Source: Promethearchaeota archaeon
GTDB taxonomy: Archaea > Asgardarchaeota > Lokiarchaeia > Sigyniarchaeales > SOKP01
Reading direction: 5' to 3'
DNA: 22,513 nucleotides
Assembly (NCBI GenBank): GCA_016926735.1
Contig: JAFGOA010000040.1
Location: forward strand, 1 to 22,513
A model generated the notes under the pieces. The model worked only from the letters and a program-made list of their open reading frames with translations, made no database searches and was not told the DNA's origin. The translations under genes were made by a program, and so were the position numbers. Each line of letters starts with the position of its first letter. Position 1 is the first letter of the stretch. Shown in pieces: positions 1-18,820 of this stretch.

Positions 1-1
1 T

Positions 2-886
2 ACAAAAGGATATTGGGGTAATGATACTGAAATAATGTATATATTTTCTTCAGATGGAGTAACATGGTCGAATGCAACAGTTATTTCCGATGGATTTAAT
101 GGAGTATATTGGAATAGCGGAAAGAGTAATTGCCCTAATATCGCAGTAGATTATTCTGGAAAGATTCATGTTGTATGGATGGACGAAACAATAGGTCCTT
201 GGTCGTATAATACTAAGGATCAAGAAATAATGTATGCATCTTCTTCAAATGGAGTAACCTGGTCGAATGTAACTGTTATTTCCGAGGGATATAATGGAGT
301 ATATTGGAATAATGGAGGATGTGGTGATCCTATTATTGCAATTGACTCAATAAATAAAATACATATTGTATGGTATGATTTTACAATTGGATCATGGGGT
401 AATGATGGAGAGATAATGTATATAGAATTAGTCGAAGATGATTCTCCCGTTATAATCGATCCTCCTCATTATGAAGATGGAAAAATCATTTGGACTGCTA
501 TTGATGATGATCCTAACAGATATACGCTTACTCGCGGTGAAAGTCTAGTTGCATCTGGTATATGGCAATCTAATGTACCTGTAATAGTTGATATAGGCTA
601 TTTAGATACAGGTAGTTATACATTTACAGTCTCATTAACTGATCAAGCAGGATACAGTGTATTTGACTCAGTTCAATTCATGATATTTTTCAAAATGGGA
701 GATGTAAATCATGATGGAGTTTTAAATATTGTTGATTCTCTACTTGTTGCTCAGTATTATGTTGGTCTTAATCCCTCCCCTTTTTATGTTAAAGAAGCAG
801 ATGTAGATTATAATGGAAATATAGATATCATAGATGCTTTAATGATTGCTCAAGCATATGTTGGTTTGAATGAATTACCTTTCTAG
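2..886 (+). CDS. Secreted/surface protein, 5'-truncated by the window: Asp-box (BNR-like) beta-propeller repeats, an Ig-like segment and a C-terminal type I dockerin
   Basis: The frame is open from position 2 (TKGYWGNDTEIM...), so the ATG at 35 is internal. Repeats contain SSDGVTWS and SSNGVTWS (Asp-box SxDxGxTW-like). The C-terminus has two Ca-binding dockerin repeats, GDVNHDGVLNIVDSLLVAQY and ADVDYNGNIDIIDALMIAQ (about 698-883). Confidence 0.8.
   Translation, partial: TKGYWGNDTEIMYIFSSDGVTWSNATVISDGFNGVYWNSGKSNCPNIAVDYSGKIHVVWMDETIGPWSYNTKDQEIMYASSSNGVTWSNVTVISEGYNGVYWNNGGCGDPIIAIDSINKIHIVWYDFTIGSWGNDGEIMYIELVEDDSPVIIDPPHYEDGKIIWTAIDDDPNRYTLTRGESLVASGIWQSNVPVIVDIGYLDTGSYTFTVSLTDQAGYSVFDSVQFMIFFKMGDVNHDGVLNIVDSLLVAQYYVGLNPSPFYVKEADVDYNGNIDIIDALMIAQAYVGLNELPF
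29..421 (+). repeat. Intragenic tandem repeat of about 62-65 aa (propeller blades)
   Basis: GA(A/G)ATAATGTAT recurs at 29, 224 and 410. GGAGTAACNTGGTCGAATG and AATGGAGTATATTGGAAT are each present twice. Confidence 0.85.
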
Positions 887-1006: not shown

Positions 1007-1588
1007 ATGAGTAGTGAAAAAGAAGGATTAAGAAAGCTAATTATGTTGATTTCAGAATTGAGAGCCAAGGACGAGGAGAGATATGAGGCTCATGTTGATT
1101 TTATGAATCAAACAATTAAAATGATTAGCGCAATAGAATCTCAAATGAATAAACATTGGAAAACGGTTTTAGAATCATTGAAGGAATTAAATGAGAATAT
1201 AAATACTAATTTAGATTCATTACTTACAGGAATTAATCCAAAGGGATTAAGAGAAACATCAAAATCATTAAGAGAAATAATGGATACAATGAATAAAAGC
1301 GTTCAATCTATGAATCTTGAAAAAGTTTTAAGTGAGTTAAAAGAACTAAAGGGAGCTAATATACAATATGTTCCTATGGCGGCTCAAGAGGTTGCTATTG
1401 GACAGCAGCCTGAGCAGATTTCTACTGGCATTGCACCTGTGGGATTAAAAGCTCCAGGGAAAACCGCCTCAACTGCTACCAATCAAGATGCTCAATGGGT
1501 TGATCCTAATGAGGCTGCTGAAAAGAAAAGAAAAAAAGAAGAAGAGGAGCCTCATTTATTGAAACCAAGTGACTTTTTTGGTTCTTAA
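1007..1588 (+). CDS. Hypothetical protein: helical/coiled-coil N-terminus, low-complexity linker, short C-terminal motif
   Basis: 193-aa ORF with heptad-like helical sequence over about the first 115 aa, an A/P/Q/T-rich linker, and a KKRKKEEEEPHLLKPSDFFGS tail. A T-run follows the stop. Confidence 0.75.
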   Translation: MSSEKEGLRKLIMLISELRAKDEERYEAHVDFMNQTIKMISAIESQMNKHWKTVLESLKELNENINTNLDSLLTGINPKGLRETSKSLREIMDTMNKSVQSMNLEKVLSELKELKGANIQYVPMAAQEVAIGQQPEQISTGIAPVGLKAPGKTASTATNQDAQWVDPNEAAEKKRKKEEEEPHLLKPSDFFGS

Positions 1589-1705
1589 ACATTTTTTTAC
1601 TTAATACTAAATATTTTTTTAAAATTTCTACTAATTATAATTAGATTAGAATAACCAAGAAAAAGTCAAATCCATTTTTAAATCTAATTAGATTTTATCA
1701 ATTAC

Positions 1706-1941
1706 AGCAAAAGAAAACACCTTCCTTTCGGGGGCTGATGAATTTTGCTTTTGTAAATCTTTAACCTCTCATCATTTAAAAACAAAAAAAATATAAGAAT
1801 AATTAATGCAACTCATTCGACAAGTTCAATTTAAATCCTTTACATCTATTTTTTGATAGAGGATGTCTGAGCCGCCCATTAGTGTTAGAAATTAATTGAT
1901 GTTTAACCTAAAAATCTCACTCCTTTAGGTGAGTAGTTCAA
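1706..1941 (+). mobile_element. Non-autonomous IS200/IS605-family mini-element (internally deleted IS605/IS1341-type; left end + tnpB 3' remnant + right end)
   Basis: TTAC at 1702-1705 immediately precedes the left-end hairpin AGCAAAAGAAAACACCTTCCTTTCGGGGGCTGATGAATTTTGCT. The right end AAATCTCACTCCTTTAGGTGAGTAGTTCAA ends in TCAA, as in the IS608 architecture (TTAC/TCAA cleavage sites, hairpin with a T-rich loop). No target duplication is seen. Joining 1705 to 1942 restores GCC ATG TAA in frame for the neighbouring minus-strand gene. Confidence 0.8.
1775..1899 (+). pseudogene. tnpB: Eroded 3' tip of a tnpB gene
   Basis: Three fragments in shifting frames: FKNKKNIRIINA (1775-1810), IRQVQFKSFTSIF (1815-1853) and DRGCLSRPLVLEIN* (1855-1899). 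They resemble, from memory, the IS1341-type TnpB C-terminus (F....G..INADxNGAxNIxRK...RG.L..P..). The DxNGAxN segment is deleted and there is a frameshift in a T-run. Confidence 0.6.
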
Positions 1942-2795
1942 ATGGCGCCCATAATATCTGAATAAATATTTAACTTAATATTATAAAATTCATCAATTAT
2001 AGCTAAAAGAAAATCAAAATATTCCTTCTTGTATTTTCTTGTAAAATTCTTTTCAAGAGTATCTTTAATTTGCATTTTGTTAATACTTTCTTTTTTTTGA
2101 GAAAATGTATCAATTATAAAATTTACTTCTTGATGAATCAATTTCATTCTTTTTTTTAAAAGAGGAATTGCTTTATCTTTTTGTTCATAAAATTCAGCAA
2201 TTATGCTATTTATAACTTTTAGATTTTTAGTAAAATTTTTAATCCCTTTAGTTTTCATATCTTGAATAAGAACGGTATTTTCCATTAATTTATTGAGTTC
2301 AAAGGTTTTATCTTTAATAACTTTCACATTATAAGTAAAAAGATCTTTCATAATTGTTTCAAGGAATTTTAATAACATACTCTTATCATTATCATCCAAT
2401 TCTTCACTTATAATTATAACATTCTTTTTTAATAAAATAGCTTTAAAAATATATTCATAAATAATCGTTGGGAAAAAACTTTTTATTAATTTAATTTGTG
2501 TATCGTTTAATGACGATTCTTTTTGAGGATCATAATCAAGACCATCTATTAATTTAATATCGTCTAATAAAATATCTACTTTTTGATATCCTCTAATATG
2601 AAAATTTTTATCTAAATATATTTGAAAATGATGCTCACAGCAATATCCTGGAGGTATACTCACTGTTGTTAGAGTTTTACTAACTTTAATTGAATTTAAA
2701 GGTATAAAGAGATCTTTATTCTTTTTACATTCAGGACATATAATATTAACCTTTATTTTAACATCAGAATCCTCATCTAATTCTATATTTTTCAT
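1938..2795 (-). CDS. Hypothetical protein with N-terminal zinc ribbon (CPEC...CCEHHF)
   Basis: 285-aa ORF containing ICPECK and CCEHHFQIYLDKNFHIRGYQKVD. An AGGTG SD-like motif lies upstream. The stop codon lies inside the mini-IS right end. Confidence 0.8.
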   Translation of the reverse strand: MKNIELDEDSDVKIKVNIICPECKKNKDLFIPLNSIKVSKTLTTVSIPPGYCCEHHFQIYLDKNFHIRGYQKVDILLDDIKLIDGLDYDPQKESSLNDTQIKLIKSFFPTIIYEYIFKAILLKKNVIIISEELDDNDKSMLLKFLETIMKDLFTYNVKVIKDKTFELNKLMENTVLIQDMKTKGIKNFTKNLKVINSIIAEFYEQKDKAIPLLKKRMKLIHQEVNFIIDTFSQKKESINKMQIKDTLEKNFTRKYKKEYFDFLLAIIDEFYNIKLNIYSDIMGAI

Positions 2796-4378: not shown

Positions 4379-5515
4379 TTATATCATCTCTAAAAATGCT
4401 TCTATCCTTGTCGATAGTTGCCCTCTATTCGAACGAGAATAGTCTCTTTCTAAATTTAAAACATTTATTCCTCTATCTTTTAGCTGATTTTTCAAATTAG
4501 TTTGAAATAAACTAAAATGATCGCAAAATTTTATAATATGATTAATTATTGCCGGTTTCTTATTAACATCCTTATTAAAACGGTTTACCCACCTTTCTAA
4601 AAAATTAAGTTTATTCTCAAGATATTCAGGAATACAATGATCTCCATATAGGTTATTTTCAAACCTTTTTGTAAGAATATTTAATGGATTTTCTATTTTT
4701 CTCAACGTCTCTTTTTCAAAAATTTGGGAATAGTAATTATAACCAATCCAAGAGTCAAAAAAAACAATATTACCTCCACTCTCTTCTATAAGATCTATTA
4801 AATAATCTCCTATGAAAATAGAGCATCCTGTTAATATTATATTTTTATAATTATTATTTTTTGTAAAATCTTTTTCTTCATATCTATCAATGAACCTTTC
4901 CAATTCAGGTTGAATATCAGGACCAAAAAGAATAGATTTTTGAATAAGTTCTAACTTTTGTGATCCTAATATATCCAAATTTCCAATTTTACTCAAAACT
5001 TTTTTAAAGTTATTATATTTTAGAATACTTTCTCTTAATTTTTCATCTGAGATTTTTGCTTTAGTAATAGATTCTATTTTTTTTTTTAGATTATCTAATT
5101 CGATTCTATAATATTTAAAAGAATTTTGATTCCTTGCATATGCAACATAAAAATCCAAACGAGGTAGTTTAGAGGTTTCAGAAATAATTTCTGATACACA
5201 AATATCTGTAACGCAATGATTTGAAAGTAAGATATAATCTACATTCTGTAAAAATTCAAACATATTGGGTATTAAATGATATAATCCTAGACAGCTCTGA
5301 GCAAAACTACATGTTGAAGGAGGCAAGAAATCATGACTTGAATTCATCAAATCATCATTTCCAGCAAAAATCATTCTTAAAGGAACAATATCAGCTGCAT
5401 CAAAAAGTTCTTCTGGAATATTATCGTGAGCTAGAAATGCAATAATTTTTTTTCCTTCTTTTTTCTTAATTTCTAAGAATTTATTATATTCGGATAAAAG
5501 TTCTGATGAATTCAT
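4379..5515 (-). CDS. 2-hydroxyacyl-CoA dehydratase family subunit
   Basis: Motifs IPEELFDAADIVPLR, STCSFAQSC, SNHC, KFCD and C-terminal GQLSTRIEAFLEMI. Confidence 0.88.
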   Translation of the reverse strand: MNSSELLSEYNKFLEIKKKEGKKIIAFLAHDNIPEELFDAADIVPLRMIFAGNDDLMNSSHDFLPPSTCSFAQSCLGLYHLIPNMFEFLQNVDYILLSNHCVTDICVSEIISETSKLPRLDFYVAYARNQNSFKYYRIELDNLKKKIESITKAKISDEKLRESILKYNNFKKVLSKIGNLDILGSQKLELIQKSILFGPDIQPELERFIDRYEEKDFTKNNNYKNIILTGCSIFIGDYLIDLIEESGGNIVFFDSWIGYNYYSQIFEKETLRKIENPLNILTKRFENNLYGDHCIPEYLENKLNFLERWVNRFNKDVNKKPAIINHIIKFCDHFSLFQTNLKNQLKDRGINVLNLERDYSRSNRGQLSTRIEAFLEMI

Positions 5516-7355: not shown

Positions 7356-8051
7356 TTATTGAAATAATCCTAAAATAATTGTTGTTAATAATAATGTTAT
7401 AATGAATGCTCCTGCCATCTGAATAATATATTTAATTATTGAGCCATTTGAAATTATTCCTAAAAATACTCCTAATAGAATAATAAATATTCCTGTAATT
7501 AAAAATGACAAAATAAAGATCATCATATCAGGTTCAGAAATAAAAAAGAAAGGGATTAGAGGAACTAAACCTCCAATAAATGGAGCACCTCCATTAACAA
7601 AAGATACAATTATTCCAGCAAAGGATTCAGCTCTTTCATGTAATGTCTTTATTTTTTTCTTCTTCTTTACTAAGGAAATTTTAGATTTACGAATAGGCAT
7701 TAACATTGCCTTTTCTATATCTTTGTCAGTATCACTTTCGATTATTTCATATTTGTGATTTTCACTAAAATTACCCATAGCTTTCTGTATATCACTTTTA
7801 ACCTTATTTTGTTCAGCTTTTTCAGAGAGAAATGAACCAGAAAATCCAGAAATAAACATAGTTATTGAAGTACTTAATCCAGACATTACAATTATTGATG
7901 ATATTATTTTCTGCCCACTTAAAAATAATACAAAAGATCCTAAAATAACACCTATAATTGTTAGCATCCCATCATAAAAGTTATTAACAAAATATCTTCT
8001 AGAGATAGCCCCAATATCAGTTATTTTAGCATAAGTTTTCCATTTTGACAT
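7356..8051 (-). CDS. VIT1/CCC1-family membrane transporter (archaeal type)
   Basis: Motifs RRYFVNNFYDGMLTIIGVILG, SGFSGSFLSEKAE and GGLVPLIPFF, with about 5 hydrophobic segments. Confidence 0.8.
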   Translation of the reverse strand: MSKWKTYAKITDIGAISRRYFVNNFYDGMLTIIGVILGSFVLFLSGQKIISSIIVMSGLSTSITMFISGFSGSFLSEKAEQNKVKSDIQKAMGNFSENHKYEIIESDTDKDIEKAMLMPIRKSKISLVKKKKKIKTLHERAESFAGIIVSFVNGGAPFIGGLVPLIPFFFISEPDMMIFILSFLITGIFIILLGVFLGIISNGSIIKYIIQMAGAFIITLLLTTIILGLFQ

Positions 8052-16624: not shown

Positions 16625-18820
16625 TTATTTTTTAATCATTTCCTTTAATAAATTACGGCATTCTTCTACAGAGAAAATATTATATTTAGCATTAGTTCTT
16701 GAAAATCCTATTTTTATCGTAAAAGAATTACTAATCGAATTAATTAATTCAAACATATCTTCATCCGTTATATCATCCCCTACAACAAATATGAACTCGG
16801 GGTCATAATCCTTAAGTAAATAATTAGAAATTGCAATACCTTTATTTATTAAAGCATTCTTTATTTCAACAACTTTATTTCCATCAAGTATAGTCAAGTC
16901 TTCTCCATGTGTAAAATTCTTCAGAAAGTCAACTAATTCTCTAGTTCTTATATCCGCAAGCTCTGATTCCACTTTTCTATAATGCCATACTAAACAAAAT
17001 TCTTTTTCTTCTATAAAAGACCCAGGTGTTCTATTGACGTATTTTTCTAAAATTGGTCTTATATCTTCTTTCCAATTATTTTTTAAATAATCTATTGTAT
17101 TCCATTCATCCATTAAATGTTTTATCCATAATCCATGCTCAGCAATTAATATAATATCAAGATTTTTAAACCATTCTGAAAGTGTTTCTTTATTTCTCCC
17201 ACTAACAACAGCTACTCTATTTTTTTTATCTTCAATAAGAGTTTTTAATATTTCTATAATCTCATCATCAGGTTTAGCTTCTTTAGGATCATTATAGAAT
17301 TGTACTAAGGTTCCATCATAATCAAGAATTATTAATCTTTTTTTTGCTTGATTATACTTTAAATATAATTCTTCTTTTTTTGTGTGATTTAAATATCTTA
17401 TTGTTTTATCTTGAGGTTTTTCTTTTACTAAGAGAAGATTTTCAAGTATATCTTCTGCCCAATTTAAAACATCATAATTTTTAATTCTTTTTTGCATTAC
17501 ACTCATTCGGTCTATTTTTTCATCTCTAGACATTGTTAAAGCGCTATTAATTGCTTCAATCATTTGGTTTTTATTGTTTGTATTAACAATAATGCTTTCA
17601 AATAACTGTTTTGCAGCACCAGCCGTTTCACTTAGTATAGGTATCCCCTCTCTATTTAATTTGGAAGCAATATATTCTTTTACAATTAAATTCATTCCAT
17701 CTCTTATTGGTGTAATTAGAATAATATCTGAGATCATATATAATGCTACAAGTTCTTCTATGTTTAAAGGTTTATGTCGATAGAGAATAGGATTCCATCC
17801 AATTTTACTAAATTTTCCATTGATTTTACCTACAAGTTCATCAATTTCCTTTTTTAAATTTTGATATTCCTCTACATCAGAACGAGAGGGGGCAATAACA
17901 AACATCAAAATAACTTTTTCTCTCCAATTTGGATAATTATCTAAAAATAATTCAAAGGCTTCCAATCGTAATTTTATCCCTTTGGTATAATCCATTCGAT
18001 CAATTGAAAGTATCACTCTATAGTGACCAATTTCTTTACTTATGTCTTTTGCCTTATTTTTTACACTTGAAGTATTAGCTATTTTCTGAAATTTGTCATA
18101 ATCTATTCCCATTGGAAAAGTATCCACCTTAATATTTCTTCCATGTAAATTTATTTGATTCATCGTAAAATCAATTGATAATAATCTGCGAACGCTACTC
18201 AAAAAATGCCTTTCGTAATCATAAGTATGAAAACCAATTAAGTCTGAACCTAAGAGTCCTTCTAAGATTTCTTCTCTCCAAGGTAGCAATCGAAAAATTT
18301 CATAAGAGGGAAAGGGAATATGTAAGAAATATCCAATGGTAGCATCAGGTATCCCATTTCTTATAAGATTAGGTAAAAGCATAAGATGATAATCTTGAAT
18401 CCATAAAATATCATCAGATTTCACAATTTCTAATATAACTCTGAAAAATTTATTATTTATTATTTTATAAAAATTCCATAATTCATCTTCAAATGTAGTA
18501 AATTCAATAAAATAATGAAAAAGAGGCCAAATAGTTTTGTTACAAAAACCCTCATAAAATTTTTCTTTTTCTTCTTGAGTAAAAAAGATAGGATAACAAT
18601 TATATTCTTCTTTTAGATGTTCTTTTATTTCATTTTTATTTGCTTCAACTTTTTCTTCGACTATTCCAGGCCATCCAATCCATATACCATTATGTGATTT
18701 ATGAAATGATTCTAAACCTGTGGTTAAGCCTCCCAAACTCCGAGTATACGTAATTTTATTATTTTCTTTTTTAACTGAAACGGGTAATCTATTTGAGATA
18801 ATTACTAATCTTCTTTCCAT
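16625..18820 (-). CDS. Bifunctional trehalose-6-phosphate synthase/phosphatase (OtsA-OtsB fusion, TPSP)
   Basis: GT20 motifs SNRLP, WIGWPG, WPLFHY, QDYHL, FLHIPFP, DRMDYTKG and DGMNLIVKEY. HAD motifs LDYDGTL, VSGR, NKG and GDDITDEDMF. Confidence 0.95.
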   Translation of the reverse strand: MERRLVIISNRLPVSVKKENNKITYTRSLGGLTTGLESFHKSHNGIWIGWPGIVEEKVEANKNEIKEHLKEEYNCYPIFFTQEEKEKFYEGFCNKTIWPLFHYFIEFTTFEDELWNFYKIINNKFFRVILEIVKSDDILWIQDYHLMLLPNLIRNGIPDATIGYFLHIPFPSYEIFRLLPWREEILEGLLGSDLIGFHTYDYERHFLSSVRRLLSIDFTMNQINLHGRNIKVDTFPMGIDYDKFQKIANTSSVKNKAKDISKEIGHYRVILSIDRMDYTKGIKLRLEAFELFLDNYPNWREKVILMFVIAPSRSDVEEYQNLKKEIDELVGKINGKFSKIGWNPILYRHKPLNIEELVALYMISDIILITPIRDGMNLIVKEYIASKLNREGIPILSETAGAAKQLFESIIVNTNNKNQMIEAINSALTMSRDEKIDRMSVMQKRIKNYDVLNWAEDILENLLLVKEKPQDKTIRYLNHTKKEELYLKYNQAKKRLIILDYDGTLVQFYNDPKEAKPDDEIIEILKTLIEDKKNRVAVVSGRNKETLSEWFKNLDIILIAEHGLWIKHLMDEWNTIDYLKNNWKEDIRPILEKYVNRTPGSFIEEKEFCLVWHYRKVESELADIRTRELVDFLKNFTHGEDLTILDGNKVVEIKNALINKGIAISNYLLKDYDPEFIFVVGDDITDEDMFELINSISNSFTIKIGFSRTNAKYNIFSVEECRNLLKEMIKK

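Follow-up and report, generated by a model that had tools for sequence, protein, structure and literature searches.

A tnpB-deleted IS200/IS605 derivative at the stop codon of a Promethearchaeota gene retains part of an omegaRNA scaffold and is probably a relic

The window analysed here, a stretch of DNA of 22,513 nucleotides, is a whole contig (C33) of a Promethearchaeota assembly of 3.88 Mb (26% G+C, 238 contigs, 99.3% complete), so that the Asgard archaeal host suspected in an earlier note, made from the sequence alone, is borne out. Between two convergent genes, at 1007-1588 on the plus strand and 1938-2795 on the minus strand, lies a short insertion that the note had proposed to be a protein-free guide cassette for a TnpB supplied in trans, or equally an inert relic. 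An Rfam search of 1500-2200 gave no match near the gathering score. Further upstream, window positions 1-886 hold what appears to be the 3' part of a gene with internal repeats spaced 195 nt and a dockerin-like duplicated motif at its C-terminus. The features of the insertion and its flanks are the following.

1694-1698, plus strand: target motif/TAM TTTAT in the host left flank, placed from family left ends and from the empty site in sister genome G003
1699-1941, plus strand: whole internal-deletion element, delimited by the G003 empty site; full-length relative at C151:~17388-18734
1714-1737, plus strand: left-end DNA guide AAAA and left hairpin (1718-1737), aligned with five G003 left ends
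1775-1780, plus strand: TATA-like box retained from the tnpB promoter; the ATG follows 31 nt downstream
~1806-1839, plus strand: tnpB 5' remnant, codons 1-11 (MQLIRQVQFKS), running into a 16-codon mini-ORF that ends at 1856
~1840-1854, plus strand: junction filler of about 15 nt, unique bases, with the 5' arm of a hairpin described in the earlier note
1855-1899, plus strand: tnpB 3' tip, codons 383-396 and stop, out of frame with the ATG
1861-1877, plus strand: omegaRNA nexus stem-loop, 4/5 pairs, A1863-C1875 mismatch
1868-1872 with 1936-1940, plus strand: pseudoknot of the nexus loop, 5/6 pairs possible
1879-1911, plus strand: omegaRNA stem-loop 2 (SL2), 9/9 pairs, its 3' strand including ACCTAAA
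1912-1941, plus strand: right end, with DNA guide 1912-1915, hairpin 1916-1933 and terminal TCAA
1938-1941, minus strand: last Ile base and TGA stop of the host gene (1938-2795), supplied by the right end; protein end GAI unchanged
1942-1961, plus strand: would-be guide in the host flank, antisense to the host gene's 3' end, positioned from the G003 empty site

The orthologous site is empty in the sister genomes G003 and G002. In G003 (contig C546) the sequence corresponding to window 1500-1698 is joined to that from 1942 without a gap, at 94-95% identity, and the element therefore comprises 1699-1941, 243 bp. The empty site is precise: the insertion comes directly after a fixed motif of 4-5 nt, on its 3' side, and has left no target duplication. 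Of the 16 distinct left ends of the family, all of which begin CAATT, 14 are preceded by TTTAT and the other two by GTTAT and TCTAT, respectively; the right end terminates in TCAA at 1941. An obligatory A after TCAA, found at 9 of 12 right ends, was tried as part of the boundary and discarded because copies on C130, C222 and L067 differ. The right end at 1941 and the guide start at 1942 had both been placed correctly in the earlier note. Its predicted TAM, TTAC, has to be given up: the TTAC at 1702-1705 is inside the element, and the empty sites and the 16 left ends put the left end at 1699 after TTTAT. Judged from these alignments, the predicted TAM is TTTAT, or TTAT in its shorter form. Presumably the AAAA before the left hairpin specifies TTAT, as the IS608 pairing rule predicts. 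TTTAT is also the motif of ISGst2 (PMC10055086). Neither TTAT nor TTAC followed by the 8-nt seed of the 1942-1961 guide has a match anywhere in the assembly, and the sole possible target would thus be the empty allele.

By homology, the element is an internal-deletion derivative of a tnpB-only (IS1341-type) IS200/IS605 element. A cognate tnpB was sought elsewhere in the genome and was found in a single full-length relative, on C151, which encodes a 396-aa TnpB. Window 1699-1839 matches the left end, leader and first 11 codons of this relative and 1855-1941 its last 87 nt, that is, codons 383-396 and the right end. Both halves are 78-93% identical to full-length copies, the closest being in G003 (90-93%), and the parent protein scores above the NF040570 cut-off. 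Codons 12-382 of tnpB, about 1.1 kb, are missing, so that no protein-coding gene stands between the ends, just the mini-ORF and the 14-codon out-of-frame tip. Homology to the full-length C151 and G003 copies hence confirms the tnpB-deleted IS200/IS605 derivative that had been proposed, and it also changes the account of what the deletion left. The stretch of about 125 nt previously read as C-terminus-like coding sequence proves, from the two matches to C151, to be largely N-terminal sequence and filler: C-terminal sequence is confined to 1855-1899, with N-terminal codons and then filler before it. Nor are the tnpB 3' tip and right end the sole remains, for the left end, the promoter box and 11 N-terminal codons were kept too. 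A TATA-like box lies at -30 to -34 of the tnpB ATG in 29 of the 31 distinct family upstream regions listed, the window included, and since this conserved box is intact, transcription of the remnant is plausible; a sigma-70 promoter scan is unsuited to archaea.

The source of the filler was looked for, with scattered AT-rich matches at most; an inverted copy of adjacent bases is possible and does not rise above chance. The deletion junction itself occurs once in the genome and is absent from 134 family genomes. Such a junction might be the product of assembly, a repeated full-length element having been collapsed to a short one, and the assembly is indeed of metagenome type, in 238 contigs, with many element copies that break contigs. 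A mis-join would, however, draw on shared sequence, whereas some 15 bases at the junction are unique and each half has changes of its own that the other copies in the genome lack. We therefore regard an artefact as extremely improbable.

The insertion falls at the very end of the minus-strand gene. Read on that strand, TTTAT at 1694-1698 contains the original TAA stop of the gene; the filled allele ends in Ile-TGA and the empty allele in Ile-TAA, and the same protein results. The insertion is thus silent because the right end re-creates Ile-stop. On the minus strand, just past this stop, the right-end hairpin followed by a T-run resembles a terminator. In G001, a more distant species of the same genus, a right end from a different subfamily, of which the 3' half remains (G001:C18:11422-11441; L021, L231), occupies exactly the same nucleotide of the host gene and likewise gives Ile-TGA, G002 and G003 being empty; either this target is tolerated repeatedly, or an old insertion was lost by excision and the site then re-occupied. 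It could be argued that the remnant persists by serving the host gene, through the stop codon, the minus-strand terminator-like hairpin or a short RNA antisense to the gene's 3' end. The stop codon is indeed located in the right end, the stem at 1916-1933 does have its T-run, and in G001 the right-end half alone has been kept at the same nucleotide. Yet the empty alleles encode an identical protein end, so that the host gains nothing new, and retention of the last four bases avoids damage while leaving the rest of the remnant unaccounted for. Service to the host gene is thus a very unlikely explanation.

A second explanation is that the remnant is a stand-alone omegaRNA. The tnpB promoter would give an RNA of about 155 nt, which TnpB, from C151 or from an unassembled copy, would trim to load the 87-nt core and cut empty alleles at TTTAT plus 1942-1961, thereby favouring retention or homing of the mini-element. 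Its RNA scaffold was assessed with a covariation model built from an alignment of 39 family right ends from genomes and metagenomes. Five helices are supported: 93.5% of cells are paired and 16 pairs are changed on both sides, a result that none of 500 shuffles and none of the slid controls reaches. Pairing across the 39 rows is 96.9% for the 5' hairpin, 95.9% for the nexus, 95.3% for the pseudoknot between nexus loop and terminal GTTCA, 90.9% for SL2 and 89.4% for the right-end hairpin. The 5' hairpin, nexus and end hairpin are recovered by RNAalifold unaided, and the five-helix layout agrees with published omegaRNAs. The 5' hairpin has 9-10 of its 10 pairs in all 39 rows; it overlaps coding sequence and shows few two-sided changes, yet its fourfold-degenerate positions are 96-100% fixed, compared with a mean of 71% for 27 sites upstream.

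In the window copy the omegaRNA core structure is present in its last 87 nt, as three stem-loops (nexus, SL2 and end hairpin) and the terminal pseudoknot, the end hairpin keeping 6/8 pairs. The deletion ends 6 nt before the nexus and has removed the 5' hairpin, and the complete family scaffold is therefore not retained. The covariation-model score is 72 bits, against 122-149 for complete scaffolds, most of which are in the training set of the model; held-out complete scaffolds score about 124-145 bits. Disruption of the scaffold stems relative to intact copies, which would have spoken against a guide, is thus found in part: the 5' hairpin is lost and there are mismatches, while the core stems are largely kept. 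Predicted nexus pairing in the window RNA is 0 to 0.09 in every context tried, compared with at least 0.98 for 7 of the 12 controls; in the prediction, the A-C mismatch and competing pairs with bases of the junction or guide keep the nexus from forming. Low values are also obtained for three controls that have mismatches in the nexus, and nearest-neighbour folding is blind to the pseudoknot and to protein-assisted folding, so this prediction weighs little. Some other copies have a mismatch in the nexus too, among them a two-site element found on metagenome contigs (L130/L152). Among solved structures there are just distant TnpB/Cas12f matches, none of them close for the window RNA.

The pairings that had been singled out from the sequence alone are a different matter. 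ACATC/GATGT at 1842-1866, ACCTAAA at 1906-1912, TTTAGGT at 1924-1930 and the 20 nt at 1942-1961 are all present as written, and neither pairing stands out from background. In 2000 dinucleotide shuffles of 1775-1941, a perfect 7-nt complementarity arises in 85% and a 5-bp stem with a loop of at most 15 nt in 97.5%. The 1842-1866 hairpin spans the deletion junction and is found in no intact copy; since one of its arms is filler and the other the 5' strand of the nexus, its formation would be at the expense of the real fold. The ACCTAAA/TTTAGGT pairing, suggested as a pseudoknot or alternative fold, is kept in 71% of cells across the 39 family sequences, without covariation and not above shuffles, and we rejected it also because it depends on two changes seen in the window copy. 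The actual pseudoknot of the family joins nexus loop 1868-1872 to 1936-1940.

The ends of the element are themselves damaged. Subterminal hairpins are present on both sides (1718-1737 and 1916-1933) and both carry lesions: C1720 faces C1735 on the left, where all five G003 left ends have G at the 1735 position, and the right-end hairpin is 18 nt long as against 20 nt in 38/39 family rows. The right DNA guide is AAAT, compared with GAAT in 32/39 rows. No Y1 tnpA was found in the 99.3% complete assembly by Pfam model, tblastx or a relative's TnpA as query, although tnpA and other repeats may be unassembled among the 238 contigs; Y1 transposase is present in G002, G003 and G006. With one copy, a junction absent from the 134 family genomes and no tnpA found in the assembly, the element appears not to have been mobilised as a unit and is probably immobile. 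Other derivatives in the same genome have different breakpoints: a 135-bp copy on C144, a rearranged one on C67, half-ends on C4, C71 and C148, and 5'-truncated copies on C160 and C173. So many remnants with differing breakpoints point to erosion rather than to the spread of one cassette.

The TnpB on C151 is an open 396-aa ORF that keeps D188, E327/E328, D363 and the zinc finger. At eight columns that are otherwise invariant, however, it has changes of its own, four of them from Gly to a charged residue (G113E, G129E, G190R and G292E), of which one lies two positions from D188; such changes number 0-1 in the cleanest relatives and up to 17 in others. In common with all family members it has Gly at the position of the usual RuvC-II Glu, and with NADVN the parent TnpB fits, by its sequence, the description of the RIIr-5 clade (PMC10691335). 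The minimal RNA-guided self-retention system that had been envisaged would need a transposase to generate the empty allele, and none was found, and a working TnpB, which is doubtful.

Several observations do favour a guide acting in trans: the TATA box is at its conserved position, the nexus, pseudoknot and SL2 keep 4/5, 5/6 and 9/9 pairs, the deletion stops short of the nexus, empty alleles exist in sister species, the C151 TnpB retains the residues named above, and action in trans is established (PMC10691335; 10.1101/2023.11.20.567912). In ISDra2, moreover, everything 5' of the pseudoknot-bearing stem is dispensable (PMC10097598), and multi-copy tnpB-less minis of about 210 bp from another subfamily in G002 appear to begin at the nexus, without the upstream hairpin. 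Against this, the conserved 5' hairpin, lost here, is kept in the tnpB-less elements L128, L130/L152 and L144 (the search pattern did not require it), and 5' erosion of stem-loops abolished cleavage for most CboIStron constructs. In the folding prediction the nexus strands are engaged by junction and guide sequences, and a single copy, a transposase that was not found, a doubtful TnpB and an assembly devoid of target add to the case. We consider a functional stand-alone omegaRNA unlikely. Transcription may occur; that the RNA also folds, is loaded by TnpB and meets its target is unlikely. The remnant is probably a decaying one-off relic that no longer works as a guide, and the lost 5' hairpin, the lesions and the single copy favour this branch of the original proposal. 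We infer that a full-length tnpB-only element entered by peel-and-paste directly 3' of TTTAT, where the convergent gene has its stop codon, that codons 12-382 would later have been lost in one deletion with short filler, and that a remnant with both ends, promoter and 87-nt core then decayed.

PATEs often encode omegaRNAs that are acted on in trans, and protein-less elements are excised by TnpA (Meers et al. 2023, PMC10055086); stand-alone omegaRNAs also work in trans (PMC10691335). OmegaRNA-only elements acting in trans are therefore already published (PMC10055086), and the window holds a damaged further example. It resembles the PATE-like ISGst elements of Geobacillus stearothermophilus (PMC10055086) in its two hairpin ends, lack of a protein gene, right-end omegaRNA and reliance on TnpA and TnpB in trans; unlike them it is a single copy in an archaeal (Promethearchaeota) host, with damaged ends, no scaffold 5' hairpin and no transposase found in the genome. 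With ISGst2-like IS605/IS1341 elements (PMC10055086) it shares the TTTAT motif, palindromic ends with DNA guides and an omegaRNA overlapping the tnpB 3' end, and differs in its TCAA right end and in a parent TnpB with Gly for the RuvC-II Glu and NADVN. Like the OMEGA stand-alone omegaRNAs, it has no effector or transposase at the locus and an effector locus in the genome; those, according to PMC10691335, were evidently mobilised and shown to work in trans, whereas mobility is argued against here. In contrast to the Halobacterium salinarum IS200/IS605 omegaRNAs (sotRNAs; PMC12558985), the window copy is without the first hairpin.

As a relic the element carries little weight beyond illustrating the erosion of tnpB elements in Asgard genomes and the fact that a TCAA right end can fall on a stop codon without effect on the protein. 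A more far-reaching reading, which we hold to be doubtful, sees the 87-nt core as a natural minimal omegaRNA: lacking the 5' hairpin, it would still act in trans with a RuvC-rearranged Asgard TnpB that recognises TTTAT as TAM, and it would guard an insertion site, at a stop codon, that has been occupied in two species. Were it to work, it would be a short natural scaffold for a little-studied TnpB clade and would show that the 5' hairpin can be spared, to the benefit of compact editors; the idea of omegaRNA-only elements acting in trans is nonetheless already in print. By-products of the analysis are the corrected TAM TTTAT, the covariation-supported five-helix model for the Promethearchaeota family and the L130/L152 candidates. 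These last (JGI metagenome contigs, L130:~4790-5187 and L152:~7455-7855) are the same tnpB-less element of about 405 bp, 93% identical at two different sites. It has a left end and promoter followed by some 200 bp of non-tnpB sequence, and its omegaRNA is complete, the 5' hairpin included; on sequence grounds it would be a better stand-alone guide candidate than the window element.

Further internal-deletion derivatives of the family are L128, L144, L213, L214, L031 and L212. Several of them have 3' breakpoints about 30-45 nt upstream of that in the window, just outside the 5' hairpin, L212-L214 having been chosen by model score and so forming a biased sample for breakpoints. Classic PATEs of about 45 bp, left and right ends fused at the hairpin, lie at C130:18948-18994 and C222:~30035-30081, and the rearranged copy at C67:24820-24930 begins with half of a left end, continues through a perfect AT-rich palindrome and an inverted fragment of the tnpB start, and finishes with the right-end terminus. 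G002 has at least 43 right ends (L226-L250), among them a multi-copy PATE of about 45 bp and the ~210-bp minis (L236, L243, L246, L250), with promoter and a compact scaffold from the nexus onward. Lastly, a mobile element with ends starting CAGTAC sits repeatedly in the TTTA loop of IS200/IS605 end hairpins, in this genome (C71:8610-8683, C144:12437-12573, C112, C74, C85, C133, C134) and elsewhere (L110, L111, L133, L235, L239), in several subfamilies and species, which looks like a targeting preference.
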